Positions 2,598 to 53,135 of a stretch of DNA of 64,000 nt are shown here, in pieces. A model generated the notes under the pieces. It saw nothing but the letters and a program-made list of their open reading frames with translations. It was not told where the DNA came from and searched no databases. The stretch comes from Desulfotignum sp. (lineage in GTDB: Bacteria; Desulfobacterota; Desulfobacteria; Desulfobacterales; Desulfobacteraceae). Every line of letters begins with the position of its first letter. Within the stretch, counting starts at the first letter, position 1. The stretch spans positions 36,079-100,078 of the forward strand of contig JAABUB010000001.1 of the NCBI GenBank assembly GCA_011389575.1. The letters are read 5' to 3'. The position numbers and the translations under genes were made by a program.

Positions 2598-2658
2598 CAG
2601 CTCGCCCAAGCAAATTCGAATATTGTCAAATTTATCGGTCCCCTGGTATCCTTTGAAA

Positions 2659-2883
2659 ATGGACAATATCAAACAAGCCATACGTTCCGTGATCAAAGAT
2701 ACCACCGAACTTGATTCTATTTGCAGTGTGCTTATAAATGCGGCAGAAAAGGCTGAACAAGAAGGATTGCCTTATCAAACACTGATTACAACAGTCTTGC
2801 ACAAATACATCACAAATCAACTAGTTGAAAAAGAGGAAATCCTGAAATCAATTCGGTTGTTAAAAGAAGAACGGGTTATATAA
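2659..2883 (+). pseudogene. Truncated/chimeric ribbon-helix-helix (CopG/BrnA-like) antitoxin remnant
   Basis: C-terminal KAEQEGLPYQTLITTVLHKY is the GxxYQTxI helix motif of these antitoxins; the expected N-terminal part and a cognate toxin are missing. Confidence 0.6.
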
Positions 2884-3011
2884 CCAGCAATTGGACGTTA
2901 ACCAAGCAGTTTAAATTCAATTGACTCAAGGCATACCAGCCATTCTGCAAAATACAGGTGCATAGCAACCAGTTTGTGGCGAAGGATGTGGTTACAACCA
3001 ACCATCCACTG

Positions 3012-3941: not shown

Positions 3942-4079
3942 AAATCTGTTTTAATGATGAAACCCTTTTTGAATTTTATCTTATAAGGATACCAATACCA
4001 GTTAAAAAATGCTATAGTTGGTTTTCCAGCAAACTGTACCAGTGTGGGTAATTTTTTTATAAAGGTGCAAAAAGTTCAT

Positions 4080-4538
4080 ATGGGTGACCATTTTCTGGAA
4101 GGCTGTTTGTTTTTTAATGTAAATGCGTTTTCACGGCAGATGCTGAAACTTGCGGAAACCAGTTTTGCGCCGTTGCAGCTCTCCCCTGCCCATGCCTCCC
4201 TGATGCTTATCCTGTATGAAAATCCAGGCATAAGTCCAAAGAAACTTGGGAATATGTTGCAGCTTACTCCCTCCACCATCACCCGGTTCATTGATGCGCT
4301 GGCCAAAAAAAAGATGGTAAAAAGAAAATCCAGCGGCAAAACCAGCGCTATATTTTCCACGGACAAAGGCCATGAAATAAAACCTGCCATTGCCCGGGCC
4401 TACCAGGAGTTTTATCAAAATTATACCCGTATTCTGGGAACCGATAAAGCCCACAGACTGGCCCTTCAGATCAGCCGCGCCAATGAAGCATTCTCCGGGT
4501 TATCCGGGGAAGATTCGGCCCATGATTCAGAACTTTAA
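4080..4538 (+). CDS. MarR-family transcriptional regulator
   Basis: Winged HTH: LSPAHASLMLILYENPGISPKKLGNMLQLTPSTITRFIDALAKKKMVKR; overlaps the truA start. Confidence 0.9.
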   Translation: MGDHFLEGCLFFNVNAFSRQMLKLAETSFAPLQLSPAHASLMLILYENPGISPKKLGNMLQLTPSTITRFIDALAKKKMVKRKSSGKTSAIFSTDKGHEIKPAIARAYQEFYQNYTRILGTDKAHRLALQISRANEAFSGLSGEDSAHDSEL

Positions 4539-5265
4539 ACTGACCATAGAATATGACGGCACCGGTTTTTTTGGATGGCAGCGCCAGGCAGACAAACCCA
4601 CCATCCAGGAAGAGCTGGAACTGGTGTTGTCCCGCATTTTGAACCAGCCTGTATTCCTGGCCGGTTCCGGCCGCACCGATGCCGGGGTCCATGCCCGGGG
4701 CCAGGTGGCCTCTTTTTGTGCTGATACGAATATGGATTCTTGGGTGCTGCAAAAAGGGGTGAACAGTCTGATGAAGCTTCCCATTGTTCTGACAGAATGC
4801 ATCCGGGTTTCTGATGAGTTTCATGCCCGGTATTCTGCGGTTTCAAAGCAATACCATTACCATATCCTCAACAGAGAAATCCCCTGCGCTGTTGGCAGAA
4901 ACTATATCTGGCACATCCATACCCTGCTGGATGCAGCTGCCATGAACCATTGCAGCTCCCTGTTATGCGGAACCCATGATTTCAAGTCTTTTGAAAATAC
5001 CGGTGCGCCAAGACGCTCCACCGTGCGCACGGTGTTTGCGGCTCAGGTGAATGAACAGCCTGGCAGCCGTCTGGTATTCAGCATCTGCGCGGACGGTTTT
5101 TTGAAAAACATGGTGAGAAATATTGTGGGCAGCCTGGTGGATGCGGGCAGGCATAAAATAACTGTGAAAGATTTTGAAAGCATTCTGTCGGCAAAGGACC
5201 GGTCCCTTGCCGGTGCCACCGCACCGGCAAGGGGGTTGTTTTTAAAACAGGTGAACTACGCCTGA
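4522..5265 (+). CDS. truA: tRNA pseudouridine(38-40) synthase
   Basis: KLTIEYDGTGFFGWQRQ, GSGRTDAGVHARGQV, GFLKNMVRNIVG, ATAPARGLFL; start ATG 4522. Confidence 0.97.
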   Translation: MIQNFKLTIEYDGTGFFGWQRQADKPTIQEELELVLSRILNQPVFLAGSGRTDAGVHARGQVASFCADTNMDSWVLQKGVNSLMKLPIVLTECIRVSDEFHARYSAVSKQYHYHILNREIPCAVGRNYIWHIHTLLDAAAMNHCSSLLCGTHDFKSFENTGAPRRSTVRTVFAAQVNEQPGSRLVFSICADGFLKNMVRNIVGSLVDAGRHKITVKDFESILSAKDRSLAGATAPARGLFLKQVNYA

Positions 5266-7076
5266 GGCTTTTCTTTGGCCGGGGTCTGAAAAGATTTTTT
5301 TTCCGGATCTGATCCGGGTTCCCTGATTTTCTGCACATGCCGGTTGTAGTGGGCAATGATGTCCCGCCGGTAGATCAGGCCGATCAGTTCTTTGTGATTT
5401 TCTTCATTCACCACGGGCAGGGCATCGATATTTTTCTGGGTCAGTTTGTGCAGCACTGTGTTCAGATCTTCGGCCGGGGTGGTGATGATCAGATCCGAAA
5501 TCATGATGTCCTTCATGACCACCAGGTCTTCAATGTGAATGGTGAAGATCACTTCCCGGATATCATTGGATGAAAATATGCCGGCAAACTCCCCTTTTGC
5601 ATTGTTCACAGGAAAATAATGCTGTTTGGTGGTCTGGAAAATGGATTTGAATTCGGAAAACGGCATGTTTTCATTGACACATTGCACCTTTTTGATCAAA
5701 TGATCCAGATCTTCCACCTTCATGGTCTGGAGGATATCCATCATGAATTCACCGGCATGGGCCGGGGAATCCACCCGGGATTTCACCTGGTTCTCAAAAA
5801 TGGTGAACCGCCGGGACAACAGATAGCACAAAGAACATACCAGCAGACTGGGCAACAGCAGGTGATAGGAATTGGTCATTTCACTGACGAAAATGATGGT
5901 GGAAATAGGGGTATTGGAAACAGAGGTGAAAAAACCGGCCATGCCCACAATAACGAATGCACCCGGATGGGTGACCACAGTGGGGATGAACATGTGAAAT
6001 ATTTTGCCCACTGCCCCGCCCAGGGCACCCCCGATAACCACGGACGGTCCGAACACCCCGCCGCTGCCGCCGGAGCCTATGGAAAAGGAAGTGGTGAAAA
6101 TTTTGCCGATGGCCAGGGCGATGAGGGTGGAGATGGCTACCTGGTTGAAAATGGCATTCTGGGCCATGCCATAGCCGAATGCCAGGGTATAGGGCAGAAA
6201 AAATCCGATAATGCCGGTGCACAGACCGCCGATGGCAGGTTTTATATGGTTGGGGACCGCAAGTTTTTTAAAAAATTCCACCAGGCCGTAAAACACCTTG
6301 ACATACATATAGCCGAACACCACCAGAACTCCTGCCAGTATAATATAAGGTCCCAGCTCCAGCGGGTTTTGAAATTTGAACCCGGGAGAATCAAACAATG
6401 ATCCCCAGCCGAATACCAGGCAGAAAACACAATATGCCACCACCGAAGAGATACCTGCCGGAATGATGACTTCTGATTCAAAATCCGGATCCCGGTACAA
6501 TACCTCGGCAGCAAACAGGGCCCCGGCCAGGGGGGCCCGGAATATACTGCCCACCCCGGCACCGATACCGGCGGCCATCATGATGCGGCGCTCTCTTTCC
6601 GACAGTTTGAAGCGGGTGGCCAGAAATGAGCCGAACCCGGAACCGATCTGGGCAATGGGCCCTTCCCTGCCCCCGGATCCGCCGGTGGTCAGGGTGATGG
6701 TGGAAGCAATGGTCTTGATGATGGGAATCCTGCCCCGGATCATTCCGCCCTTGTTGTGGTATGCGTCAATGGCAGCATCTGTACCATGGCCTTCTGCTTC
6801 AGGTGCAAAGGTGTATACCAGCCAGCCGGACACGATACCTCCCAGGGCCGGCAGAATCAGCAGCATCCACCGGTTGAACGGCGTATTGGTGGAGGGCAGC
6901 AGGGCATGTTCCCCGGCCGGTGCATCCGGCCGGTATCCTGCCATCATATCCAGAAAATAGTGCATGCCAAGGCCGCACAGGTAATGAAAAAGAACAGCAC
7001 CAAGGCCTGCGATCAGGCCGATGAGCACAAAATAAAACGACCATCTGAAGGCCACTTTAAAATCAAGTGTTCCCAT
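5256..7076 (-). CDS. ClC chloride channel/H+-Cl- antiporter with C-terminal CBS pair
   Basis: GGSGGREGP, FRAPLAGALFAAE, GGSGGVFGP motifs, many TM helices, CBS domains. Start 7076 preferred (ORF extends to 7142). Confidence 0.92.
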   Translation of the reverse strand: MGTLDFKVAFRWSFYFVLIGLIAGLGAVLFHYLCGLGMHYFLDMMAGYRPDAPAGEHALLPSTNTPFNRWMLLILPALGGIVSGWLVYTFAPEAEGHGTDAAIDAYHNKGGMIRGRIPIIKTIASTITLTTGGSGGREGPIAQIGSGFGSFLATRFKLSERERRIMMAAGIGAGVGSIFRAPLAGALFAAEVLYRDPDFESEVIIPAGISSVVAYCVFCLVFGWGSLFDSPGFKFQNPLELGPYIILAGVLVVFGYMYVKVFYGLVEFFKKLAVPNHIKPAIGGLCTGIIGFFLPYTLAFGYGMAQNAIFNQVAISTLIALAIGKIFTTSFSIGSGGSGGVFGPSVVIGGALGGAVGKIFHMFIPTVVTHPGAFVIVGMAGFFTSVSNTPISTIIFVSEMTNSYHLLLPSLLVCSLCYLLSRRFTIFENQVKSRVDSPAHAGEFMMDILQTMKVEDLDHLIKKVQCVNENMPFSEFKSIFQTTKQHYFPVNNAKGEFAGIFSSNDIREVIFTIHIEDLVVMKDIMISDLIITTPAEDLNTVLHKLTQKNIDALPVVNEENHKELIGLIYRRDIIAHYNRHVQKIREPGSDPEKKSFQTPAKEKPQA

Positions 7077-7098
7077 GTTCCCAGGTCCTTTCAGTGGT

Positions 7099-8415
7099 TC
7101 AGGTAGTGCGAAGATCCTTGATGCCGCTGACAATGATATCAAACAAGGGCTTCACATCTTTTTCTTCCAGACAGGAAAACGCTATCCGGATATTTTTCTC
7201 GCCGATGGCAATCAGGCCCACCCCGTAAGCGTCCAGCAGGTGAAGGCGCAATTGTTCCGCATGCACATCCTTGAGGCGGATGCACATGAAATATCCTGAA
7301 TTAAAGGGATATACATCAAAATAGGATGCATATGCCGGGTTCTTCAACGTTTTTTTTATCAAGGCGGCCCGCTGTTTGAGCAGAGTGAATTTTTCCTGTT
7401 TCTGGGCATGGTAGTCAGGATCGGCCATGGCCTTGAGCAGAATGGTCTGGCCCAGGTGGGAGGCATTGGAAATATTGCCCCTGATGCAGCCGGCGGTTTT
7501 TTGTTCAAGGGCCTGGTAAATATCTTCTGTTCCCTGGTCCGCTGCAAGGCCATAGGTGATAAAACCAAGCCGAAATCCCCATACATAGTCTTCTTTTGTG
7601 GCGCCGTCCAGCTTAACAGCCAAAAGCCGTTTGTGCCTGCCCGCAAGTTTTGCAAACAAAGATTCCTTACTGGTCTGTTCTTCAAAAAACAGTCCGAAAT
7701 ACGCATCATCACAGACAGCCACCACATTCGTCCCTTTTTGTGCCGTGTCCAGAAGAATGGCAGCAACCTGGTCAGCCTCTTTTTTGCTCAGAGAATATCC
7801 GCTGGGATTGTGGGGAAAATTAAGCATTACCACCACTTTGTCATTCTGTGCAGCCCGGGTCTGGAGCACAGATGCAAAATCTTCCACATTGAACCGGGTC
7901 AATGCATCATCATAGGCTTTGAAATGTACGATTTTTGCGTGGTTGCGCACAGTAAAGGTCATGTTATAGTTGCCCCACATCATGTCCGGCATCACAATGA
8001 CATCTTCGTTGTTCACCCACATATCTGAGAACACACTGACACCATGGGTGATGCCCGAAGTCACCACCGGCAGGCTGACAACACTGCCTTCCAGAGAGGG
8101 GTTTTTTTGAAACAGATTTTTTTTCCATTGCTCCCGCAGACCGGGGATGCCGAAAGACGGGGCATAGGGCAGATAAGCATCCGGCGCAATACCGGTGATA
8201 TACCGGGTGACACAGGGCAGACTCAGTACGCTGCCGCCCTGTTTTGCAATGCCGATGGTGGCATTGATTCTATGGGCTTTGGTTCTGGCCTCTGCACTCT
8301 GGCTTAAAATCCCTTTGGGAAAAAACAATGCTTTTCCCATATCGGAAAGCATGTCATAAATATGGGGATTGGCTTGTGTGATGGTGGTGTTCAACTGCTG
8401 TGCAATCACATTCAT
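7099..8415 (-). CDS. Class I/II PLP-dependent aminotransferase
   Basis: LNFPHNPSGY, CDDAYFGLF, DGATKEDYVWGFRLG (PLP lysine), IRIAFS. Confidence 0.9.
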   Translation of the reverse strand: MNVIAQQLNTTITQANPHIYDMLSDMGKALFFPKGILSQSAEARTKAHRINATIGIAKQGGSVLSLPCVTRYITGIAPDAYLPYAPSFGIPGLREQWKKNLFQKNPSLEGSVVSLPVVTSGITHGVSVFSDMWVNNEDVIVMPDMMWGNYNMTFTVRNHAKIVHFKAYDDALTRFNVEDFASVLQTRAAQNDKVVVMLNFPHNPSGYSLSKKEADQVAAILLDTAQKGTNVVAVCDDAYFGLFFEEQTSKESLFAKLAGRHKRLLAVKLDGATKEDYVWGFRLGFITYGLAADQGTEDIYQALEQKTAGCIRGNISNASHLGQTILLKAMADPDYHAQKQEKFTLLKQRAALIKKTLKNPAYASYFDVYPFNSGYFMCIRLKDVHAEQLRLHLLDAYGVGLIAIGEKNIRIAFSCLEEKDVKPLFDIIVSGIKDLRTT

Positions 8416-9077: not shown

Positions 9078-10076
9078 ATGAATCACACAACCATGATTAT
9101 TTCCACAGCCATTGATGTTCTGAAGATCGAAGCACAGGGTATTTTACACCTGGCCAAAAAACTGGATGCTGCATTTGAAACCCTTGTACATGATATCTGT
9201 GCCTCCCCGGGCCGGGTGGTTATTTCCGGGATCGGAAAATCCGGTCTTATCGGACGTAAAATTGCAGCGACTTTGAGCAGCACCGGCACCAATGCCATGT
9301 TTCTGCATCCGGTGGAAGCGGTGCACGGAGACCTGGGCATGGTGAGCCCCCATGATGTGTTCATCGCTATTTCCAACAGCGGAGAAACCAGCGAACTCAA
9401 CCAGCTGCTGCCGGTAATCCGGGATATCGGATGCCGCCTGGCCGGGTTTACAGGAAATCCTTTATCCACCATGGCCCGGTATTGTGATCTGGTGATCGAT
9501 ACCGGGGTGGAAAAAGAAGCCTGTCCCTTTAATATGACCCCGACCTGCAGCACCACTGCCCAGCTGGCCATGGGAGATGCCCTGGCCATTGTGCTGATTG
9601 AAAAAAAGAAATTCAAAAAAAGTGATTTCATGAAATCTCATCCCGGCGGTGCGCTGGGTCAGCGGCTCGCCTGTCAGGTGGGAGAAATCATGTTCAAGAC
9701 AGCCCAGGCACCCTGTGCTTTTCTGGGTGAGACCATGGCAACCGCCCTGGCAACCATGGACCGGTTCAGCCTGGGCGCTGTCCTGGTGCTCAACCGGGAC
9801 CGCCAGGTGCTGGGTATTATCACCGATGGTGATATCCGGCATGCCATGGCCCGGGGAATAAGTGATTTTGCAAAAATGCCGGTGGCTGATATCATGACCA
9901 GAAATCCCCACTGTCTGGGGGTGGAGGCTTACCTGTATGATGCCCTGAATCTCATGGAAAAATATGAGATCACGGTCTTGCCGATTGTAGATACAAAAAA
10001 CCGGCTGCAGGGCCTTTTACACCTGCATGACATCCTTGGGAAAGGATCTTTTACATTCAACGGAGGCAGCCAATGA
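9078..10076 (+). CDS. kdsD: Arabinose-5-phosphate isomerase KdsD/GutQ (SIS + CBS)
   Basis: GIGKSGLIGRKIAATLSSTG, EAVHGDLG, SNSGET, HPGGALG, two CBS domains. Confidence 0.93.
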   Translation: MNHTTMIISTAIDVLKIEAQGILHLAKKLDAAFETLVHDICASPGRVVISGIGKSGLIGRKIAATLSSTGTNAMFLHPVEAVHGDLGMVSPHDVFIAISNSGETSELNQLLPVIRDIGCRLAGFTGNPLSTMARYCDLVIDTGVEKEACPFNMTPTCSTTAQLAMGDALAIVLIEKKKFKKSDFMKSHPGGALGQRLACQVGEIMFKTAQAPCAFLGETMATALATMDRFSLGAVLVLNRDRQVLGIITDGDIRHAMARGISDFAKMPVADIMTRNPHCLGVEAYLYDALNLMEKYEITVLPIVDTKNRLQGLLHLHDILGKGSFTFNGGSQ

Positions 10077-11401
10077 TAACCCAGGATCTTTGCACAAAAA
10101 TTCCGGTTCTCGGAAAAGCCAATATTGCTTCTCCCATAATACGGGCAGACCGATCAGGCAAGGCAAAAAAATGTTTTATTTCAGATGAATCCCGCATCAT
10201 CGTAGATGTCCAGACCGAATATATAGAGAACACCATTGCTGCCGGGCAGAAACTTCTCAGCTTTGAACAGGCCGGACCCAGGGAAAAGATATATTTTGAC
10301 CCCAGCAAACTTAAATGCGCTATTGTGACCTGCGGCGGGCTCTGCCCCGGCTTGAATGACATTATCAGGGCAATTGTGCTGGAGCTGTATCATATTTACC
10401 ATGTGAAAACCATCTACGGCATCCGCCACGGACTTCAGGGATTTGTTCCGGAATACAAACATGATTTCATGGATCTGACCCCTGCATCTGTAGCCGGTAT
10501 ACAGGATATGGGCGGCACCATTTTAGGCTCTTCCCGGGGCAGCCAGGATATCGGGGTTGTGGTGGACTGCCTGGAACGTATGAGTGTGGGAATTTTATTC
10601 ATGGTGGGCGGTGACGGTACCATCATGGCTTCCAAAAAGATTGCCGATGAAATCGAAAATCGCAATCTCAAAATATCTGTGGTGGGAATTCCCAAAACCA
10701 TTGACAACGATATTTTTCTGGTTTCCCGGTCCTTTGGCTTTGACTCGGCCGTTGATGTGGCCACCCAGGCCATCAAAGGTGCCCATAATGAATCAGAAGC
10801 CTACCCCAACGGTATCGGGCTGATCAAGCTCATGGGACGGCATTCGGGTTTTCTGGCAGCAACGGCGGCCCTGGCCCAGCAGGATGCCAATTTTGTACTT
10901 ATTCCGGAAGTGGATATAGACCTGTATGGAAAAACCGGCTTTCTTCAGGCCCTGGAAAACAGGATCACAACCAGAAAACATGGGGTGGTGATTGTGGCTG
11001 AAGGAGCGGGCCAGAATTTTTTTGAAAACAAGGAGCAAAAGTATGATGCATCCGGTAACATAGTGCTCCAGGATATCGGCTTGTTTCTCAAGGAGCAGAT
11101 TACCAAGTGGTTTGCGGCCAGAAATATCCCCATTACCTTAAAATACATTGATCCTGCCTATATTATCCGCAGTCTGGCAGCCAATGCCAATGACAGTGTG
11201 TTCTGCGGGCTGCTGGGAAGGGATGCGGTCCATGCGGGTATGGCAGGAAAAACCAAGCTTCTGGTGAGTTTCTGGAACAACCATTATGTTCATGTGCCCA
11301 TGGAAGCCTCTGCCGGCAGGCAAAAGCGGCTGGATCCCAATGGCAGGCTCTGGCAGTCAGTGCTGGAGGCCACCGGTCAGGATGCCTATTTCGGATCTTG
11401 A
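10073..11401 (+). CDS. pfkA: ATP-dependent 6-phosphofructokinase
   Basis: TCGGLCPG, GGTILGSSR, GGDG, PKTIDND, KLMGRHSG; ATGA overlap with kdsD. Confidence 0.92.
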   Translation: MITQDLCTKIPVLGKANIASPIIRADRSGKAKKCFISDESRIIVDVQTEYIENTIAAGQKLLSFEQAGPREKIYFDPSKLKCAIVTCGGLCPGLNDIIRAIVLELYHIYHVKTIYGIRHGLQGFVPEYKHDFMDLTPASVAGIQDMGGTILGSSRGSQDIGVVVDCLERMSVGILFMVGGDGTIMASKKIADEIENRNLKISVVGIPKTIDNDIFLVSRSFGFDSAVDVATQAIKGAHNESEAYPNGIGLIKLMGRHSGFLAATAALAQQDANFVLIPEVDIDLYGKTGFLQALENRITTRKHGVVIVAEGAGQNFFENKEQKYDASGNIVLQDIGLFLKEQITKWFAARNIPITLKYIDPAYIIRSLAANANDSVFCGLLGRDAVHAGMAGKTKLLVSFWNNHYVHVPMEASAGRQKRLDPNGRLWQSVLEATGQDAYFGS

Positions 11402-31166: not shown

Positions 31167-33620
31167 TTAACCGCCTTTATGGGTAACAATTGTATAGCCG
31201 TTGCCAGAGGATGTAATGGTGACCGCCCCATGGGTATCTGTTCTAAAAATGTGGATTCCTTTCTGCCGGTATCGGTCCAGAATATCTGGATGGGGAAACC
31301 CGTAACGGTTATTAAATCCGCAGGATATTATTACACTTTCAGGATGAACTTTATCAAGGAAAAATTTGGTGGAAGAGGTATTGCTGCCGTGGTGAGGGGC
31401 CAGCAGAATTTTGGCGCCCGGATGTTGCTGGACAGTGCGGGCCAGAAGTTCTTCTCTTGTTTCCATGATATCTCCTGGAAAAAGCATATAAAACGCTTTG
31501 AGTTTCAATTTGAAAACCAGAGAATTGTCATTGAAATCCAGTCCGGGTTGAACAGATTCACATTGGAAAAAGTCAAATTGTGTCTGGTCATAGATCATTT
31601 TGTTTTGTGTGCAATCCGGTATAAAAACCGGAATTTGTCTGTTTCGGCAGGCTGCCATGATACGTGCATACCCTTTTCGGAAACTTTTGTCTGCATTTTT
31701 TACCAGAGCTCCAACCTTGAAATTTTCCAGTATAAATACCAGTCCGTTCATGTGGTCTGTGTCAGGGTGGGTGAGGATAACCGCATCCAGAGCCATGATA
31801 CGCTGCTGCCACAAAAAAGGAGCCACAATATGCCGGCCTGTATCAAAACTGCTTCCCCCTGAAAAGCCGCCCCCGTCCACCAGAATGTTTTTTCCTTCAA
31901 TAGTCTGAATCAGTGCCGCATTTCCCTGGCCCACATCCAGGATTGTGATGGACATGTGTCCCAAAACTCTTGTTTTTGTCAGCTCCTGTATCCCATGCAC
32001 GCATACAATTGTGATGATGGCGGTGCACACTATTATGACCGGTTTTGTCTTTTTAACAGACAAGAGATAAAAACCTGCTCCCATAACAGCATAAATGGCC
32101 ACCACATCATATACCGATAAAGAAGGCAGATGGGACCAGGCAAAAGGAAACCCGGTCAGCCAGGCAACAAATGAAAGACAAAAAGAAACCAGTTTTGCCG
32201 CCATAGTCAACAACACAGCTGAAATACCGGGGAACACAGGCCAGAAAAGCAGACTCACCAGGCCGAGGGGCAGACATATAAAACCTATGACAGGTACCAG
32301 TAACAGGTTTGCCGGAATCTGAACCAAAGAGACCATGTTGAAATACCGGGCAATCAACGGAAATGTTCCAAGCCCGGCCAACACGGTTACAATGCAGATG
32401 GACGTCAGAAATTTTGGAATCAGGGGAATATGAAGCCACTGATATCTGGCAACAACACCCAGGCCAAGAATAATGAACAGTACCGCTGAAAAGGACAATT
32501 GAAATGAAATGGAAAACAAAGACCCTGGATCTGCCATCAAAATAAGAATACCGGCTCCTGCCAGAATATTGATTGGATGGTTTTGTTTTTCACCAAGAAA
32601 CGCGACCATAAAAATACTGATCATAATAAATGCCCGCTGGGTGGAAGGTGAAAATCCGCAAAACAACGCATACACGCACAAGGGAACAAGGGTAAGCATG
32701 CCGGCAATTTTTCTGGCCCTGGCCGAGATCAGAAGACGTGAAAAACCCGACAGCATCCAGTTAAAAAAATTATAAAATATTATTGACAAAATTCCCAGAT
32801 GCAGTCCTGAAATCGCCAGCAGATGGCTTGCGCCTGCCTGTGAAAACCTGTCCCGTATCCGGGTGGGCATCTGCTGTTTTTTGCCGGTGACCAGGGCAGC
32901 CAGAATATGGGCGGCATCCTGATGGTTGAGCCGGGTCATTATAAAATGGTAAAATTGGTTTCGTGTTTTTTCCAACCCCTGCATCCACCGGGTGAAAACA
33001 AAAAGATTTTCAGCCGGGACCAGCGTGATTTTGCCGGCCCCGGTATGGACGGCACCGAAGATGCCCTGGCGTTTGAGAAAGGTCTGGTAATCAAAGGCCC
33101 CGGGATTGCCGAAATTCCTGATGGGCCGGATGGGCCCCGGGCACTCAATATGATCATTGAATCCTGGCAGGCTGCCTTTTTTCCCATAGATGTTTACATA
33201 TACACGGCCCGTGGCGGCGATGGCAAAAGCGTTTCCGTCTGCATCTGTGGTGACAATTTTCCGGCAGTCCAGCACCACACGATTTTTATAGGGATACTGC
33301 CGTGAAAAAGAAACAATCCTGCCTGACAGCGTAATGCCGGGATCGTTGTAAAACCGGGACACATGTCCGGGCGAAAGATGCGGGAAATGCATCTGATAAC
33401 TCTGATATCCGGACCACACCCCGGCCAGAAAACATATACAAAATACAAAAAATTTTTGGCTGGAATATCCTGTAAAAAATACAGCTGCCAGCAGACCGAA
33501 AAACATAACAGCCAGCAGCAGGTTTGAAGGAGAGGATGCATTCCCTGCCAGAATTCCTGTAATCATGGCCAGAATTACAGGGACAAGTGGTGGAATCAAA
33601 GGCTGTGATAATTGTTTCAC
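31167..33620 (-). CDS. comEC: DNA internalization competence protein ComEC/Rec2
   Basis: NPGAFDY, HLLAISGLH, SFQLSF, LDVGQG, THPDTDH, PHHGS, NRYGFPH; GTG 33620 after GAGG. Confidence 0.95.
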   Translation of the reverse strand: MKQLSQPLIPPLVPVILAMITGILAGNASSPSNLLLAVMFFGLLAAVFFTGYSSQKFFVFCICFLAGVWSGYQSYQMHFPHLSPGHVSRFYNDPGITLSGRIVSFSRQYPYKNRVVLDCRKIVTTDADGNAFAIAATGRVYVNIYGKKGSLPGFNDHIECPGPIRPIRNFGNPGAFDYQTFLKRQGIFGAVHTGAGKITLVPAENLFVFTRWMQGLEKTRNQFYHFIMTRLNHQDAAHILAALVTGKKQQMPTRIRDRFSQAGASHLLAISGLHLGILSIIFYNFFNWMLSGFSRLLISARARKIAGMLTLVPLCVYALFCGFSPSTQRAFIMISIFMVAFLGEKQNHPINILAGAGILILMADPGSLFSISFQLSFSAVLFIILGLGVVARYQWLHIPLIPKFLTSICIVTVLAGLGTFPLIARYFNMVSLVQIPANLLLVPVIGFICLPLGLVSLLFWPVFPGISAVLLTMAAKLVSFCLSFVAWLTGFPFAWSHLPSLSVYDVVAIYAVMGAGFYLLSVKKTKPVIIVCTAIITIVCVHGIQELTKTRVLGHMSITILDVGQGNAALIQTIEGKNILVDGGGFSGGSSFDTGRHIVAPFLWQQRIMALDAVILTHPDTDHMNGLVFILENFKVGALVKNADKSFRKGYARIMAACRNRQIPVFIPDCTQNKMIYDQTQFDFFQCESVQPGLDFNDNSLVFKLKLKAFYMLFPGDIMETREELLARTVQQHPGAKILLAPHHGSNTSSTKFFLDKVHPESVIISCGFNNRYGFPHPDILDRYRQKGIHIFRTDTHGAVTITSSGNGYTIVTHKGG

Positions 33621-33651
33621 ATATCCTCGCCCGAATATATGTATTTTTTGC

Positions 33652-34905
33652 TTATCTGATGCGCTGCATGTCAGCTCCCAGCGCACAAAATTTTTCTTCA
33701 ATGGCCTCATATCCCCGGTCCATGTGATACACCCGGGAAATCAGGGTGGTGCCTTTGGCTATCAGTCCTGCGATTACCAAAGAGGCACTGGCACGAAGGT
33801 CTGAAGCCATAACCGGCGCTGCCTGAAGTTCAGCCACCCCTTTGACTTTGGCAATATTTGCTCTGGAAAGCATAATATCCGCCCCCATGCGCATCAGTTC
33901 ATTGGCATGGATAAACCGGTTTTCAAAAATGGATTCATGAATAATGCTTGTGCTGTCCGCAATACACATCAAGGCCATGAACTGGGCCTGCATATCAGTG
34001 GGAAATCCCGGATAGGGAAGGGTTGTGATGTCCACGCTTCTGACATGTTCCACACCCTTTACGCGGATCCTGTCATCGTATATTTCCACTTCGGCACCAG
34101 ATGCCTTGAGCTTATTGATCACCCCGCCTATATGGTGTGGATCGCATCCTTTAATCAATACATTGCCCCGGGTAGCGGCTGCAGACACCATAAAGGTGCC
34201 GGTTTCAATGCGGTCCGGAATCACGGTGACCTGTGCCGGTGAAAGATGCGGCACTCCTTCTATGGTAATAATGGCAGAACCGGCCCCGGATATTTTTGCC
34301 CCCATCCGGGACAAGGCATCAGCCAGGCAGACGATTTCAGGCTCACGGGCGGCATTTCTGAGAACGGTTTTTCCTTTGGCCAGAACAGCAGCCATCATCA
34401 GATTTTCAGTCCCGGTTACGGTAGGGGTATCAAAATAGATCTCGCTGCCTGTAAGTTTTTCCGCCCTTGCTTCAATGTAGCCGTGGTAAATATCAATTTT
34501 GGCTCCCAGCGCCTCCAGACCGGTCAAATGCATGTTCACCGGTCTGGCACCGATGGCACATCCCCCCGGCAAAGAAACCTTGGCATGTCCGAATCTGGCC
34601 ACCAAAGGTCCCAGCACAAGAATGGATGCCCGCATTTTGCGCACAAGGTCATATTCCGCCTCAATTTTATGAATACCGGATCCATCCACAGTCATGACAT
34701 GGTTGTCAAAGGTGCACCGGGCGCCCAGGTCTTCCAGTAGAAGCCGGATGCTGTGAATATCTATAAGATCAGGAACATTTGTAAATTCACAGGTCCCATC
34801 CACCAGGATGCTGGCGGCTATAAGCGGGAGTGCCGCATTTTTTGCCCCGGAGATAAAAACCTCTCCTGCAAGTTTTCTGCCCCCGTTGATTTGAATTTTA
34901 TCCAT
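33652..34905 (-). CDS. murA: UDP-N-acetylglucosamine 1-carboxyvinyltransferase
   Basis: SGAKNAALP, LPGGCAIGARP, PGFPTDMQAQ, DLRA. Confidence 0.98.
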   Translation of the reverse strand: MDKIQINGGRKLAGEVFISGAKNAALPLIAASILVDGTCEFTNVPDLIDIHSIRLLLEDLGARCTFDNHVMTVDGSGIHKIEAEYDLVRKMRASILVLGPLVARFGHAKVSLPGGCAIGARPVNMHLTGLEALGAKIDIYHGYIEARAEKLTGSEIYFDTPTVTGTENLMMAAVLAKGKTVLRNAAREPEIVCLADALSRMGAKISGAGSAIITIEGVPHLSPAQVTVIPDRIETGTFMVSAAATRGNVLIKGCDPHHIGGVINKLKASGAEVEIYDDRIRVKGVEHVRSVDITTLPYPGFPTDMQAQFMALMCIADSTSIIHESIFENRFIHANELMRMGADIMLSRANIAKVKGVAELQAAPVMASDLRASASLVIAGLIAKGTTLISRVYHMDRGYEAIEEKFCALGADMQRIR

Positions 34906-38143: not shown

Positions 38144-40360
38144 CTAGTTGGGGGGAACCCTTTTGATCTGGTTGATCATGGAGACAAGCCGCCGGTCAGT
38201 CTGGTGGAGACGGCCTGCCAGTACTGTGAACAAATGCTTTGCCACATCCGGATATTTTTCAATGATTTCTTCGAGTTTGTCTCCGGGAAACCGCTTGATT
38301 TTGGAGCGGCCCTTGGAGATGATGGATGCGGATCGGGCATCTTTGGTAATGGCGGCCATCTCTCCGAAATATTCACCCGGCTGGGTGATCTCAGCAATTT
38401 TTTTGCCCCCTTTGACCACATACACCGCCCCTTGAACCAGTTTGAAAAAATCAATGTCTGTATTGTTTTCCCGAATAATGACATCTTTGTCTTCGTATTG
38501 TTCCACATCCGGATTCACCAGGTAGGCGGGCAAAGATTCCTTGGTGATCACTGTTTTTTTCACCACTTCTTCCAGTGATGTTTCACCTGTTCTAACCTTC
38601 TGGAGACCGGCATCCCGCAAGGTGACCATGCCTTCTTGCACCCCCACCTTTCTGAGCTGGTCCTCAGCCACTTCTGCACTTATGGCCTTGGCCACTTCAT
38701 CGGTAACCTCCATGAGTTCATAGAGCCCGACCCTGCCCTTGTAGCCGGTGCCGTTGCAATGGCTGCATCCATTGGGACCCAGGATATTCAGATGCGGGAT
38801 CTCTTCTTTGGGAAATCCATGGAGTTCCAGTTCCTTGGGGTTGTGTCCGGTTACCTGTTGTTTGCATTCCGGGCACAGCCGCCTGGCCAGCCGCTGGGAC
38901 AGGACCATGGTCACTGATGCGGCCAGCATATAAGGCGGAATGCCGATATCCACCAGCCGGCCTATGGTGGAAGGACAATCGTTGGTATGCAGGGTGGCAA
39001 ATACCAGATGGCCGGTCATGGCTGCTTTTATGGCGATTTCCGCTGTATCGATGTCCCGGATTTCTCCCACCATGATAATGTCGGGATCCTGGCGCAGAAA
39101 CGCTTTCAGGGCAGCGGCAAAAGTCATGCCGATCTCTTCTCTCACCGGCACCTGGTTGATTCCCTTGAAGTTGAACTCCACCGGATCTTCCGCAGTCAGA
39201 ATTTTGATGTCATCCTTGTTAAGCCGGTTGAGGATGGAATACAGGGTAGTGGTTTTTCCGGAGCCTGTCGGCCCTGTCACCAGCAGCAGGCCATAGGGCC
39301 GGGAAATGCTGCGCTTGAGCATGTCAAAGGTGGCAGATTCAAATCCCAGCCTGGTCAGATCAATGTTCAAAGCACTCTGGTCAAGTATCCGCATGACAAT
39401 GCTTTCTCCGAACAGGGTGGGCAGGGACGATACCCGGAAATCCACGGATTTTTTTCTGCCCAGGCGCAGTTTTATCCGGCCGTCCTGGGGAATCCGTCTT
39501 TCAGCAATATCCAGGGATGCCAGAATTTTAATGCGCGAAACCACGGCATTTTTAATGGAAACCGGCAGGTTCATGGCTTTGTACATGCCGCCGTCCAGAC
39601 GGTACCGGACCTGAAAAGATTTTTCAAAAGGTTCGATGTGGATATCTGACACCCCGTCATTGATGGCTTTGGTCAAAATTCCGTTCACAAGCTTGATGAT
39701 AGGGGCATCAGAGGCCATGAATTCGTCCTGGCCGTCCTCTCTTTCAGCGGTGCCCACCTCGATTTCTTCAGCTGCCTCAGATACCAGGGAGCCAAAATCC
39801 TCCACAGAGGTAACCGGGGTCTCATCTTCCGCATCTTCCTCAAAATGGAGAAATTTTTTGTAGTCTTCATCATTGATTTTATAAAAATCCCGGTAGGCCT
39901 GGATAATATCATTTTCCGTGGTGACATATACATGGATATTTTTTGCGGTCTTGTTGTGCAGGTCTTCCACCACATGGGTATCGGTAGGTTCCACCATGGC
40001 CACGGACAGGTCGTCATTTTTCAGGGCCAGAGGAAAAACCATGCTTTCTTTGGCCAGATCAAAGGGGAGTATTTTTTGGGCCGCTGCATCAGGTTTCATT
40101 TCTGAAAACCGGATCACATTGTAATTATAGATCCTTCCCAATACATTGATGATGGTTTCCGGATCAATATACCCTTTGTTGAGGAGAATGGAGCTGAGGC
40201 GCTCCCCGGTTTTTTTGTGAACTCCCAGGGCCTCATCCAGCTGGAGACTGGTTATCTGGCCTTCCTTGGAAAGAATTTCACCTATCCGGGTTTTGCCGGC
40301 TCCGGACTGGTCCTTGATAATGGATGTGAGACTGGATTTTCCTTTTGGCGTTTTAACCAT
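38144..40360 (-). CDS. pilB: Type IV pilus assembly ATPase PilB with C-terminal cyclic-nucleotide-binding domain
   Basis: MshEN-like N-terminus, SDIHIEP, GPTGSGKTT, EDPVE, LRQDPDIIMVGEIRD, Zn-site CPEC/CSHC, then PGEYFGEMAAITKDARSA. Confidence 0.93.
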   Translation of the reverse strand: MVKTPKGKSSLTSIIKDQSGAGKTRIGEILSKEGQITSLQLDEALGVHKKTGERLSSILLNKGYIDPETIINVLGRIYNYNVIRFSEMKPDAAAQKILPFDLAKESMVFPLALKNDDLSVAMVEPTDTHVVEDLHNKTAKNIHVYVTTENDIIQAYRDFYKINDEDYKKFLHFEEDAEDETPVTSVEDFGSLVSEAAEEIEVGTAEREDGQDEFMASDAPIIKLVNGILTKAINDGVSDIHIEPFEKSFQVRYRLDGGMYKAMNLPVSIKNAVVSRIKILASLDIAERRIPQDGRIKLRLGRKKSVDFRVSSLPTLFGESIVMRILDQSALNIDLTRLGFESATFDMLKRSISRPYGLLLVTGPTGSGKTTTLYSILNRLNKDDIKILTAEDPVEFNFKGINQVPVREEIGMTFAAALKAFLRQDPDIIMVGEIRDIDTAEIAIKAAMTGHLVFATLHTNDCPSTIGRLVDIGIPPYMLAASVTMVLSQRLARRLCPECKQQVTGHNPKELELHGFPKEEIPHLNILGPNGCSHCNGTGYKGRVGLYELMEVTDEVAKAISAEVAEDQLRKVGVQEGMVTLRDAGLQKVRTGETSLEEVVKKTVITKESLPAYLVNPDVEQYEDKDVIIRENNTDIDFFKLVQGAVYVVKGGKKIAEITQPGEYFGEMAAITKDARSASIISKGRSKIKRFPGDKLEEIIEKYPDVAKHLFTVLAGRLHQTDRRLVSMINQIKRVPPN

Positions 40361-40378: not shown

Positions 40379-40588
40379 CTATTTATAATTATTATACACA
40401 CGGATGCTGCCTGCAATCACCAGAAATATTCCCAGCATGTAAAAACAGAACCTTACAATAAAAAGTTTACTGCTGAAAAATTCAATGGCTGCCACCTGGG
40501 CGGTTACTTCAGGTATCCGGTAAAAGACCCCTAATCCCACTGCGATGAGAACAATCCCATAATAGAATGCGAATTTTTTTTTGTCCAT
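40379..40588 (-). CDS. Small two-TM membrane protein
   Basis: 69 aa, two hydrophobic segments, fills the gap between ABC-F and pilB on the same strand. Confidence 0.7.
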   Translation of the reverse strand: MDKKKFAFYYGIVLIAVGLGVFYRIPEVTAQVAAIEFFSSKLFIVRFCFYMLGIFLVIAGSIRVYNNYK

Positions 40589-40594
40589 CTTAAA

Positions 40595-42436
40595 TCACAG
40601 CCTTTCCAATTCTTTGAGTTGGTTTTCAAATTGTATATTATGAGATTCCAGGTCATTCATCTTTTCTTCAAGATCGGCAAAAAGCGATTCCACTGAAGTT
40701 TCAAGGTCTGACAATTGTTTTGAAAATATCTGGATGCTTTTGCCGTTATTGTTTTCAGATGCTGTGAGAAGCTCTTCATTCACTGCCTGTATACGGTTTT
40801 CCAGAGATTCTATCTCATCTTCTATTCTGGAAATTTTTTTCTGTATAGGCCCCAGCACCCTGGATCGGCCGGCAATGATTTCCGATTTTTTCCGGCGCAT
40901 TTTTTTTTTGTTCATTCCCGGGGATTTGTTTTGTTTTCCTGTAACCGGGCCAGCCTCTTCCCACCCGTCTTTATCCAGAAATTCCCGGTAACTGCCTTCA
41001 AATACCGCGATATGGTCGTTTTTGAATACCACCAGCCGGGTGGCCAGAGAATGCAGAAACATTTCGTTATGGGTCACCAGGATCAGGGCGCCGGGAAAAT
41101 CCTGCAATGCCGCTGAAAATGCATCACAGGCCTCGATATCCAGGTGGTTGGTGGGTTCATCCAGCAGCAGCAGGTTCACAGGGGTCAAAAGAAGTTTTCC
41201 CAGCATGACCCGGGATTTTTCTCCGCCTGACAATATGCTGATCTTTTTCAAGGCATCATCTTTTTCAAACATCATGGCCCCGCATATATTTCTGGCAGCC
41301 TGGCGGTCAAAATCCGGATGGGCATCTATCAGTTCTTCTTCAATGGTATGGCCCTCATTGAGGGTGAGCACATTGGTTTGTTCAAAATATCCCGGAACAA
41401 CCCCGGGGTTGAAGGTGACACTGCCGGATGCAGGGGCAAGTCTGCCGGTGAGCAGTTTGACCAGGGTGGTTTTGCCTTTGCCGTTCTGGCCGATGACGGC
41501 AATTCTTTCTCCTGGCTGGACCGTCAAAGAAAAATTGCGGATCAACGGGTTTTGTGTTTCATAGGCAAAACAAAGCTTTTGGGCATTAAGCATCTGCTTG
41601 CCGTTGAAGGGCTGATAATTAAAAGAAAAATCCATATTTTTGAGTTTGGAAAGTTTTTCTTTTGACTGCTGTTTTTCAAGGGTTTTTATTCTGGACTGTA
41701 CCATGTTTGCCAGCCGTGCTTTGGCCCGGAACCGGGTGACAAAGGTCTCGATTTCTTTTTTTCGCTTTTCCTCATTCAGCCTGGTCTTTTCATATACTTC
41801 TTCATCCTGGGCTACCTGGTCATAATATTTGGCAGTATTCCCTGCTATTTTTCTGATTTTCTGACGGTGGATACCGGCAATATGGGTGACCACATGGTCC
41901 ATGAACCCCCGGTCATGGGTAACCAGCAGCACCTCCCTGGGCCAGGAGGTCAGAAACTGGGAGATCCATCGAATGGAGGTGATATCCAGGTAATTGGTGG
42001 GCTCATCCAGAATGAGCAGATCAGGTTCTGACACCAGCACTTTGGCCAGGTTCAGCCTGACCTGAAAACCGCCGGAAAAAACTTCAGGATTTCTGTCCAT
42101 ATCCAAAGGGGAAAACCCCAGACCGGCCAGCACTTTTTCCGCTTTCCAATAGTGTTCTTTTTCCTGGTCAGGCAGCCCGGTCATGGCTTCTTCGCGCACC
42201 GTGTTTTTTGTAAACACAATTTTCTGGGACAACATGCCGAGGCGGTAACCGGCAGCACAATTAATCCTGCCCTCATCCGGGTGATCATATCCTGCAATTA
42301 TATTCAGCAGGGTGGTTTTTCCATGACCGTTTCTGCCCACCAGGCCCACTCGTTCTCCTGAATTTATCTGCAGGCTGGCATCATCAAACAGGGTCTGGTC
42401 GCCAAACCCCTTACAAATGGATTCAATTGTCAACAT
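40595..42436 (-). CDS. ABC-F family ATPase (ribosome-associated)
   Basis: Two ABC cassettes (GRNGHGKT, GQNGKGKT, two DEPTN), no TM, C-terminal coiled coil. Confidence 0.93.
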   Translation of the reverse strand: MLTIESICKGFGDQTLFDDASLQINSGERVGLVGRNGHGKTTLLNIIAGYDHPDEGRINCAAGYRLGMLSQKIVFTKNTVREEAMTGLPDQEKEHYWKAEKVLAGLGFSPLDMDRNPEVFSGGFQVRLNLAKVLVSEPDLLILDEPTNYLDITSIRWISQFLTSWPREVLLVTHDRGFMDHVVTHIAGIHRQKIRKIAGNTAKYYDQVAQDEEVYEKTRLNEEKRKKEIETFVTRFRAKARLANMVQSRIKTLEKQQSKEKLSKLKNMDFSFNYQPFNGKQMLNAQKLCFAYETQNPLIRNFSLTVQPGERIAVIGQNGKGKTTLVKLLTGRLAPASGSVTFNPGVVPGYFEQTNVLTLNEGHTIEEELIDAHPDFDRQAARNICGAMMFEKDDALKKISILSGGEKSRVMLGKLLLTPVNLLLLDEPTNHLDIEACDAFSAALQDFPGALILVTHNEMFLHSLATRLVVFKNDHIAVFEGSYREFLDKDGWEEAGPVTGKQNKSPGMNKKKMRRKKSEIIAGRSRVLGPIQKKISRIEDEIESLENRIQAVNEELLTASENNNGKSIQIFSKQLSDLETSVESLFADLEEKMNDLESHNIQFENQLKELERL

Positions 42437-51365: not shown

Positions 51366-53135
51366 TTAATCTTCCATCTCTTTGTAGGGGAGAATGTCTT
51401 TGTATTCTTCCTGGACAAACCGGGTAATTTCCTGAACTGTGGTAAATCCAAAAACTTTTTTGGCAAATATGCCGGCTTTTTCAAAATCCATATCACGGAT
51501 CATTTTTTTTATCACCGGGATGGAGGCAGCGTTCATGGACAGATTTTTCAGCCCAAGTCCCAGCAGTATCGGTATGTTGATGGGTTCTCCTGCCATTTCA
51601 CCGCACATCACCAGATCAATATTGTTCTTTTGGGCGGCAGTAACGGTCATTTTGATCATTTTCAATACTGCCGGGTTCAAGGCCTGATACAAATGCGCCA
51701 CCCTGCGGTTGCGGCGGTCAATGGCCATGGAGTATTGGATGAGATCATTGGTACCGATGCTGAAAAAATCCACCTCCTGTGCCAGCTCATCAGCCATAAG
51801 GACAGCAGAGGGCACCTCTATCATGATGCCCAAAGCAATATCCTTGTTGAAGATTTTGTCTTCTTTGTCAAGTTCCAGAACCGCCTGATCGATAACAGCC
51901 TTAACTTCTATGATTTCTTCCATGCATGAAATCATGGGAATCAGCAGGTTTATATTGCCGAACGCCGCAGCCCGGAGAATAGCCTTGAGCTGGGTGATAA
52001 AGATATCTTTGTTTTCCAGACAGAACCGGACAGCCCGCAATCCCAGAGACGGATTGGCCTCTTCCACAGGGTCGATATAGGGATTGAATTTATCACCGTT
52101 GATATCCAGGGTGCGGATGGTCACCGGCTGGGGGTTCATAAGTTCCACCAATTCCTTGTATTTTACCAGCAGCTCATCTTCAGTGGGGAACCGCTCCAGA
52201 TCCAGATAAAGAAATTCGGTTCTGAACAGCCCGATGCCCGCAGCCCCATTGTCTTTTGCAGAGACCACTTCCTCCACCAGTTCAATATTGGCCATAAGAT
52301 TCAGGGCAACCCCGTCTGTGGTAACAGCCGGCAGATGGCTGTCTCTTTCTATATCTGCCCGGTAGGCTTCAAACCGGGCCAGGCGTTCTTCGTATTTAAA
52401 CAGGGTGTCTTCTTCAGGATTGATGATGATGATACCGGAAGAACCGTCCACAACAAGAATATCATCATTATTGATACTGGTTGTGGCCCGGGCCAGGCCG
52501 AAAACAGAAGGAATTTTTAAAGATTTGGCCACAATACCGGTGTGGGAATCTTTTCCGCCCCGGTCGGTCACAAAACCTTTGATACGTTCCAGCTGAATCT
52601 GGCTGGCATCGGCAGGACTCAGGTCATGGGCCACAATGATCACCCGTTTGTTAATATCTGCAATTTTGATATCCCGGGCACCCAGAAGATAAGACATTAT
52701 CTTGTCGGAAACCTGCACAATGTCATTGACCCGTGCTTTTAAATACTGGTCATCCACCTGCTGAAACATGAGTTTCACCTGGCGGGCCACTTTTCTTAAG
52801 GCCCATTCCGCATTGATCTGTTCATTTTGAATAGTGTCAATGGTTTTGCCATACAGCATCTTATCTTTGAACAAAGCCATATGGGTTTCAAGAATGTTAA
52901 GGGTCTCGCTCACATCTTCATCAAGGGCCTGTATTATCCGGGCATGTTCTTTTTTTGCTTTTGCCACGGCGTTTTTAAACCGGTCTATTTCCTGGGGCAC
53001 CATGGTATCGGAGACCGGATAACGCTCGATGATGTTGACCCCTTCTCTGTCCACCAAATAGGCTTTTCCAATGCAGATGCCCGGGGAACCGCTGATGCCT
53101 TTGAGGATCATTTCCCGGGGTTTGTCACGATTCAT
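51366..53135 (-). CDS. ptsI: PTS enzyme I (no GAF domain)
   Basis: GISGSPGI, GGKDSHTGIVA (phospho-His), GIGLFRTEFL, IGTNDLIQY, MCGEMAG. Confidence 0.96.
   Translation of the reverse strand: MNRDKPREMILKGISGSPGICIGKAYLVDREGVNIIERYPVSDTMVPQEIDRFKNAVAKAKKEHARIIQALDEDVSETLNILETHMALFKDKMLYGKTIDTIQNEQINAEWALRKVARQVKLMFQQVDDQYLKARVNDIVQVSDKIMSYLLGARDIKIADINKRVIIVAHDLSPADASQIQLERIKGFVTDRGGKDSHTGIVAKSLKIPSVFGLARATTSINNDDILVVDGSSGIIIINPEEDTLFKYEERLARFEAYRADIERDSHLPAVTTDGVALNLMANIELVEEVVSAKDNGAAGIGLFRTEFLYLDLERFPTEDELLVKYKELVELMNPQPVTIRTLDINGDKFNPYIDPVEEANPSLGLRAVRFCLENKDIFITQLKAILRAAAFGNINLLIPMISCMEEIIEVKAVIDQAVLELDKEDKIFNKDIALGIMIEVPSAVLMADELAQEVDFFSIGTNDLIQYSMAIDRRNRRVAHLYQALNPAVLKMIKMTVTAAQKNNIDLVMCGEMAGEPINIPILLGLGLKNLSMNAASIPVIKKMIRDMDFEKAGIFAKKVFGFTTVQEITRFVQEEYKDILPYKEMED

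Follow-up and report, generated by a model that had tools for sequence, protein, structure and literature searches.

A PilB-type ATPase fused to a cyclic nucleotide-binding domain in Desulfotignum and related sulfate reducers: a putative pilus motor with a built-in messenger receptor

Can the motor that extends a type IV pilus hold its own receptor for a cyclic nucleoside monophosphate (cNMP)? This question is raised by a gene in a stretch of DNA of 64,000 nt from Desulfotignum sp. (GCA_011389575.1, contig JAABUB010000001.1, positions 36,079-100,078 of the forward strand), the whole of which is referred to here as the window. The gene, pilB-CNB, encodes a PilB-type ATPase with a cyclic nucleotide-binding (CNB) domain in its C-terminus (Table 1), and a first-pass annotation of the window had suggested direct allosteric control of pilus extension by cAMP, possibly integrated with c-di-GMP. 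PilB-CNB is a real and strongly conserved variant of PilB, apparently undescribed, and it is modestly probable that it represents a type IVa pilus (T4aP) extension motor with a built-in cNMP receptor—a reading in which ligand binding, the identity of the ligand, the existence and direction of an allosteric coupling, and membership of a T4aP machine are inferred.

PilB-CNB is translated from a single open reading frame (ORF) of 738 codons with no internal stops, and the whole protein scores 734.8 bits against TIGR02538, the NCBIfam equivalog model of PilB, whose cut-off is 675.65. The Walker A motif, Asp box, Walker B motif and His box of PilT-class ATPases are all present, as located by script, and C532 and C535 of the tetracysteine zinc site are nearly invariant in the alignment of homologues. 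Thus, every motif of the complete PilB ATPase described in the first-pass annotation, zinc site included, has been located, and by these intact motifs the best reading is that PilB-CNB is a catalytically competent type IVa extension ATPase. In the N-terminal region, NF053729 (the NCBIfam model of the MshE-related c-di-GMP motif) matches residues 25-75 with 49.7 bits against a cut-off of 38, and the strings formerly quoted from this part of the protein fall at residues 25-48 and 54-65. A sequence search of the PDB aligns the MshEN region with the GSPII domains of PilF, with Geobacter PilB and with the MshEN structure 5htl, the best matches of solved structure for the N-terminal region being the PilB proteins of Geobacter and Myxococcus (5tsg/5tsh, 6olj, 5zfr, 3jc8). 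These proteins share with PilB-CNB the GSPII/MshEN, the N2D and the C-terminal domain (CTD), the Walker A and B motifs, the Asp and His boxes and the tetracysteine. However, they stop after the CTD, at ~566-588 aa, whereas PilB-CNB adds a CNB domain of 135 residues.

This addition is matched by the Pfam family PF00027 (cNMP_binding) with 50.9 bits, against a gathering cut-off of 27.5, over positions 2-89 of the 89 of the profile, and the limits previously given for the domain (38144-38515, residues ~616-738) are correct. As also anticipated, the protein holds no DNA-binding module: Pfam gives no match to HTH_Crp or to any other helix-turn-helix (HTH) family in PilB-CNB, the alignment with CRP ends at CRP residue ~132, and the protein stops 35 residues past the beta-barrel, directly after the C-helix, lacking the C-terminal HTH of the CRP/FNR type. 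The AF2 model of the isolated domain (pLDDT 87.1, pTM 0.73) exhibits an eight-stranded barrel followed by a hinge and lid C-helix. With this model as query, Foldseek returns at least 500 matches at E <= 0.001, the top listed being HCN, CRP, GlxR and SthK, all with probability 1.0, and the matches also include HCN2/4, Vfr, PycTIR and Bd1971; the match to the CRP-cAMP complex has a probability of 1.0, a TMq of 0.72 and a root-mean-square deviation of 2.3 A. The PDB sequence search likewise matches the CNB domains of PKG, PKA and HCN, down to E 1e-14, with PKG as the best.

The residues expected to hold the ligand are strongly conserved. In a set of 19 non-redundant homologues, 43-85% identical overall, G662, F665, G666, E667 and R676 are invariant, and Ser/Thr at position 677 (Ser in 14, Thr in 5) and A678 come close to this. 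Averaged over columns, conservation of the CNB domain in the same set is 0.79, close to the values of the ATPase lobes (0.83-0.86) and above that of the MshEN C-terminal subdomain (0.66). The cassette is shown by these alignments to be under strong purifying selection, and the intact phosphate-binding cassette and C-helix noticed in the first pass are borne out, the cassette Gly, Glu, Arg, Ser/Thr and Ala all being kept in the homologues. Aligned with E. coli CRP (reference sequence from the MG1655 record, 22% identity), E667, R676, S677 and A678 correspond to CRP E72, R82, S83 and A84, and R717, T721 and D722 of the C-helix correspond to CRP R123, T127 and S128, the adenine and phosphate contacts of that protein. 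On this sequence evidence the sensor looks functional, and binding of a cNMP is predicted.

The manner in which the domain is joined to the ATPase also deserves attention. In the alignment with CRP, a near-invariant LPAYLxNP segment (residues 610-617, window 38510-38533) falls on the CRP N-terminal helix and, consequently, what appears to be a linker already belongs to the CNB fold, leaving a gap of only ~6-8 residues in the alignment between the last ATPase helix and that fold. In the full-length AF2 model, pLDDT falls below 50 only at residues 608-610, around the junction. Such a tight join would fit a mechanical coupling between both domains.

The fusion is not a peculiarity of the window. 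Genome searches were made with residues 560-738 (the ATPase tail plus the CNB domain) as query, counting full-length matches in frames of 730-770 aa. Within its own family, the Desulfobacteraceae, the fusion was found in ~113 of the 121 sampled genomes and in all 19 genera; in the wider samples it was found in 29/251 genomes of the order, 85/301 of the class and 24/401 of the phylum, other classes included. A scan with one genome per species gives at least 455 species genomes carrying it, and named carriers comprise the cultured Desulfobacter latus AcRS2 and Desulfamplus magnetovallimortis, together with Desulfobacterium, Desulfatiglans, Desulfobulbus, Desulfocapsa, Desulfofustis and Desulfurivibrionaceae. 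The three-domain architecture is present in more than 100 protein clusters of independent sources, among them Desulfotignum, Desulfospira, Desulfobacula and Desulfobacter, complete genomes included. When a sample of 111 genomes of the order was searched for an ATPase passing TIGR02538, only 12 were found to have one, which is CNB-fused in 11.

A single origin is suggested by the ATPase core. In a maximum likelihood tree (quick search mode) built on 384 columns of the core, with the CNB domain excluded, all 36 fused cores lie on one side of one branch (SH-aLRT 99.6), and the nearest outsider is an ordinary PilB of 570 aa from another family. The core of the window PilB-CNB shares at least 63% identity with the fused cores and at most 52% with the non-fused ones. 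Because all 36 fused cores share one side of the branch, the fused proteins fit one clade, consistent with a single origin.

Several variants of the architecture were met in these searches. In one genus of the family, four genomes hold an extended form with open frames of 890-1001 aa, such as the ORF 2269-5271 (+) of locus L005 (G023:C14:34500-41500), where a Pro/Gln-rich low-complexity extension of ~230 aa follows the C-helix. In a sister family, locus L008 (G166:C138:1500-11062) encodes two adjacent, divergent PilB-CNB paralogues, 3097-5355 (-) and 5631-7895 (+), both with intact cassettes. Locus L058, from a metagenome-assembled genome of the Desulfobulbia, has a 99-aa ORF (1624-1923, +) with a CNB-type cassette (FGEM...PRSAT) directly upstream of its PilB-CNB gene. 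In a distant fused homologue from a metagenome, P0156 (743 aa), the CNB cassette is intact but Walker A (GPRDSGKT) and both the Asp and the His box are changed, and this protein is possibly a pseudo-ATPase that senses cNMP.

Which machine would be driven by PilB-CNB has to be judged from the rest of the genome, which is 83% complete and divided into 163 contigs. It encodes three PilB/GspE-like ATPases, of which only PilB-CNB passes TIGR02538, the other two scoring 602 and 523 bits. The second is the GspE of a gspK-L-C-D-E-F-type operon. Only two platform proteins are found, namely the GspF of that type II secretion system (T2SS) operon and a PilC, which adjoins PilS at C78:28-30.5 kb, 45 kb from pilB on the same contig. 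PilM, a second secretin (PilQ-type, near pilM) and two PilT genes are located on another contig, C77. The simplest reading is that PilB-CNB pairs with this scattered T4aP set, and since it is the sole ATPase passing TIGR02538, and one of the two platform proteins belongs to the T2SS, PilB-CNB is likely the T4aP motor, an assignment that is only inferred because adjacent pilus genes are missing. The third ATPase (L002, G000:C121:25000-44000, ORF 9157-10980 on the minus strand, 607 aa) is an orphan whose best NCBIfam match is TfpB, below the cut-off, and is encoded directly upstream of HD_3 and HD_5 (HD-GYP-like) proteins and a MotA/MotB pair.

At the opposite end of the protein, the state of the c-di-GMP site had to be clarified. 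Extension ATPases that bind c-di-GMP hold two N-terminal motifs of 24 residues spaced by five residues (PMC5013675, PMC11731258, PMC6957770), and PilB-CNB has this two-motif arrangement: motif I spans residues 25-48, the spacer residues 49-53 and motif II residues 54-77. In the MshEN consensus, each motif opens with (R/K/L)-L-G (positions 1-3) and closes with Gln (position 24), the terminal Gln and the Gly at position 3 making polar contacts (PMC5013675). By residue count, motif I of PilB-CNB runs from R-I-G to H48 and motif II from R-L-S56 to I77, so that three key contacts, the Gln at the end of each motif and the Gly of motif II, are replaced; in Geobacter PilB, by contrast, Gln closes both motifs. 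Among 120 fused homologues, position 24 of motif I is Gln in 63 and His in 55; in motif II, 116 have Ser at position 3, and position 24 is Leu or Ile in 110 and Gln in only 2. Sister families and the Desulfobulbia retain more of the consensus, and a few of them match it in full. In PilF, GSPII-A, whose motif I ends in His (position 24) and whose motif II is degenerate, does not bind c-di-GMP, and Q-to-E changes at the contact positions of GSPII-B lower or abolish binding (PMC11731258). Since the losses among its contact residues resemble those of GSPII-A, which does not bind, c-di-GMP input to the window protein is doubtful, and binding has probably been weakened or lost in the genus. A dual input of cNMP and c-di-GMP may therefore exist in some relatives, but probably not in PilB-CNB of the window. 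The partial degeneracy formerly ascribed to this motif, from Q to H and from G to S, was right as far as H48 and S56 are concerned, while the third loss, I77 in place of the final Gln of motif II, had been overlooked; with all three changes hitting contacts, and with the GSPII-A precedent, the integration of c-di-GMP proposed at that time is weakened.

The following model would accommodate these features. PilB would have acquired a CRP-like CNB domain—N-terminal helix, eight-stranded barrel and C-helix—joined ~6-8 residues past the last ATPase helix, whose cassette would bind a 3',5'-cyclic mononucleotide, with cAMP somewhat favoured over cGMP. Binding would reposition the C-helix and, given the almost rigid connection of the CNB domain to the C-terminal ATPase lobe, this movement would alter the ATPase cycle of the hexamer or its docking on PilC/PilM, so that the level of cNMP would tune pilus extension post-translationally. 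The MshEN region would be kept as a fold, and a cNMP would perhaps be the main nucleotide input in Desulfotignum, given that the c-di-GMP site is degenerate in the genus. A broader proposal, advanced more tentatively, is that a clade of sulfate-reducing Thermodesulfobacteriota gates pilus extension at the motor by cNMP, and that in the Desulfobacteraceae this sensor has largely replaced a decayed c-di-GMP site.

With respect to the ligand, cAMP might be supplied locally by a class I adenylate cyclase that carries pentapeptide repeats in its N-terminal region and is encoded 13 kb from pilB-CNB, upstream of ptsI (phosphotransferase system enzyme I, 51366-53135, minus strand) and next to ptsHI. 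Among the genomes of the phylum sample, a class I cyclase is encoded by 12 of the 24 with the fusion and by 28 of the 377 others (40/401 overall), relatives that are not independent; this co-occurrence, confounded by shared ancestry, is suggestive and is taken as context only. The CRP-like C-helix contacts, together with the presence of this cyclase nearby and its enrichment among carriers, lead us to favour cAMP somewhat over cGMP, as a prediction from sequence. An identical architecture responding to cGMP or to another cNMP (cCMP, cUMP) is unlikely, although several observations speak for it. The Ser or Thr that follows the cassette Arg in the 19 homologues is typical of the cGMP-selective cassettes of PKG and CNG, the top PDB sequence matches are the CNB domains of PKG, the cUMP receptor PycTIR is among the matches, the genome holds 6-7 class III cyclase-domain genes, and half of the fused genomes lack the class I enzyme. 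On the other hand, R-S/T-A is also found in the cAMP-binding CRP and HCN, T721 and D722 align with the adenine-contacting T127 and S128 of CRP, and it is the class I cyclase that is enriched in carriers.

Other alternatives concern the fusion, the sensor and the machine. Given that the source is a metagenome-assembled genome in 163 contigs, the fusion might be an artefact of assembly or gene calling, either a chimeric contig or the read-through of two genes. This is almost certainly wrong, because the fusion recurs in the independent clusters mentioned above, forms one continuous ORF in isolates and in single-contig complete genomes, and is bridged by contigs from RNA libraries of relatives, 85-95% identical, which span the ATPase-CNB junction without indels (one of them covers 38148-38790). 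The fusion reported in the first pass therefore holds against both an artefact and an absence from relatives, since nearly the whole family carries it and it is spread widely through the phylum. A CNB domain that no longer senses a ligand, and works as a constitutive module for oligomerisation, docking or localisation through C-helix pairing or partner binding, would be in agreement with the tight join to the ATPase. C-helices of the CRP type mediate dimerisation, and some distant fused homologues have degenerate cassettes, such as P0166, where His replaces the cassette Arg. Nevertheless, this is quite unlikely, as the ribose-phosphate residues of the cassette vary little or not at all in the main clade, which would be unexpected for a pure scaffold. 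Finally, PilB-CNB could be a PilB-derived, messenger-controlled ATPase with another output, such as the regulation of exopolysaccharides (EPS), DNA uptake or another type IV filament. In favour of this are the separation of the gene from pilus genes, both here and in the majority of relatives, the failure of PilM to track the fusion across the order, a comEC gene 4.4 kb away and the signalling to EPS production reported for M. xanthus PilB (PMC5544727). We consider such an output very unlikely, since no other ATPase of the genome passes TIGR02538, one of the only two platform proteins is in the T2SS operon, and the catalytic and zinc motifs are intact. T4aP genes are, moreover, often scattered in other bacteria.

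The T4aP motor with a built-in cNMP receptor thus stays the preferred reading, and a number of points weigh against it. No pilus gene was found within ~4 kb of pilB-CNB, either here or in most loci of relatives. A PilM is encoded by 101 of 111 genomes of the order, with or without a fused PilB, and therefore other PilB-like ATPases can serve T4aP-like machines in the order; for the same reason, the idea that the fusion denotes a T4aP machine across the order was dropped. As the genome is 83% complete, another PilB could have been left unassembled. The full-length AF2 model is poor (pLDDT 65.8, pTM 0.40, with N2D disordered), so that the placement of the CNB domain relative to the hexamer is not derivable from it, and a docking of the domain on the ATPase taken from this model was set aside. 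The RNA libraries recovered small shares of the stretch, only as contigs of the 85-95% identical relatives, and do not prove transcription. With regard to the ligand, the half of the fused phylum-sample genomes without a class I cyclase (family f105 has it in 0/6) and the 22% identity of the CRP alignment on which the choice of cAMP over cGMP rests also count against it.

Searches of the open-access full-text literature yielded no account of a CNB domain on a PilB or T2SSE ATPase, in agreement with the earlier remark that no characterised PilB of this architecture was known, and sequence databases name the fused proteins just 'PilB'. The closest principles are found in different systems. In V. 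cholerae MshE, T. thermophilus PilF (GSPII-B/C) and the PilB proteins of M. xanthus and C. thermophilum, a messenger receptor is likewise inside the motor polypeptide; unlike these c-di-GMP ATPases, PilB-CNB has an extra putative sensor at the opposite end, with a CNB fold and predicted to recognise another class of messenger. CRP, Vfr and GlxR share with it the CNB fold, the cassette (G-E ... R-S-A) and the long C-helix, but act on transcription through their HTH, whereas in PilB-CNB, which has none, control would be exerted on the motor. The type IV pilus genes of Pseudomonas are under the control of cAMP-Vfr (PMC11656802). The cAMP-EAL phosphodiesterase Bd1971 (6hq4), the channel SthK and PycTIR also join a CNB domain in cis to an effector, which thereby comes under direct cNMP control, although none of these effectors is a PilT-class hexameric secretion ATPase, and the literature searched offered no case in which the effector is a pilus or secretion motor. 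In the FimX-PilZ-PilB systems of Xanthomonas and Pseudomonas, a nucleotide messenger acts post-translationally on PilB (PMC8389850, PMC5595344), but this messenger is c-di-GMP and is received in trans by a separate protein, while the putative receptor of PilB-CNB is in cis.

A 2024 review of PilB regulation describes cAMP acting only via Vfr-dependent transcription, and the direct nucleotide control of PilB known to date is that of c-di-GMP, through MshEN in cis or FimX/PilZ in trans (PMC11656802). If the proposed reading is true, a CNB domain on the motor would add a third route of control, fast, post-translational and cNMP-dependent; PilB-CNB would be, as far as could be found, the first cNMP-regulated member of the PilT/GspE secretion-ATPase superfamily, and its history would involve an evolutionary swap of the second-messenger input on an ATPase of that superfamily. 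Since the class I cyclase adjoins ptsHI, the system could tie energy or carbon status to attachment, aggregation or DNA uptake in these sediment sulfate reducers. The family is large and includes cultured strains, which makes binding and ATPase assays feasible.

The features discussed here are collected in Table 1.

Table 1. Coordinates of pilB-CNB, of the domains and motifs of its product, and of other genes in the window
Feature	Position in window	Strand	Basis and remarks
pilB-CNB gene, predicted type IVa pilus assembly ATPase with C-terminal CNB domain	38144..40360	(-)	738 aa + stop; ORF translation, TIGR02538, Pfam
Tandem 24-residue MshEN_N-type motifs, residues 25-77, 5-residue spacer	40130..40288	(-)	NF053729; degenerate at H48, S56, I77
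MshEN / GSPII C-terminal subdomain, residues 79-161	39878..40126	(-)	Pfam PF05157, E 1e-13
T2SSE ATPase core (N2D + CTD), residues 217-600	38561..39712	(-)	Pfam PF00437, E 5e-137
Walker A, GPTGSGKTT, residues 363-371	39248-39274	(-)	Script motif location
Asp box, TAEDPVE, residues 389-395	39176-39196	(-)	Script motif location
Walker B, DPDIIMVGEIRD, residues 425-436	39053-39088	(-)	Script motif location
His box, GHLVFATLHTN, residues 450-460	38981-39013	(-)	Script motif location
CPEC zinc-site cysteines, residues 496-499	38864-38875	(-)	Script motif location
CSHC zinc-site cysteines, residues 532-535	38756-38767	(-)	Script motif location
ATPase-CNB junction, residues 601-619	38504..38560	(-)	Conservation, CRP alignment, AF2
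CNB beta-barrel, residues 620-703	38252..38503	(-)	Pfam PF00027, PDB sequence matches, AF2, Foldseek
Phosphate-binding cassette GEYFGEMAAITKDARSA, residues 662-678	38327-38377	(-)	Script motif location
Long C-helix (hinge + lid), residues 704-738	38147..38251	(-)	AF2 helix 704-733, CRP alignment, conservation
Conserved 69-aa ORF, two hydrophobic, probably membrane-spanning segments	40379..40588	(-)	tblastn
ABC-F ATPase gene	40595..42436	(-)	Pfam
ComEC-type DNA-uptake channel gene	31167-33710	(-)	Competence, DUF4131 and metallo-beta-lactamase domains
Class I adenylate cyclase, N-terminal pentapeptide-repeat region, 1289 aa	53500..57369	(-)	PF01295 E 8e-48, PF12633 E 2e-47

Regarding the genetic neighbourhood, the 69-aa ORF ends 18 nt upstream of the start of pilB-CNB, and tblastn locates a counterpart in the corresponding place at 47 of 80 related loci, with 40-91% identity. 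It has no Pfam family above the cut-off, only a sub-threshold match to DUF2304, and may be co-transcribed with pilB-CNB and be a possible partner of its product. The ABC-F gene is found upstream in 42 of the 80 loci and is a conserved neighbour in the Desulfobacteraceae, by synteny only; the conserved order in this family is ABC-F, the 69-aa ORF and pilB-CNB, opposite to a convergent queH-yggS-maf. The comEC gene may be relevant to PilB-CNB if the pili serve natural transformation.

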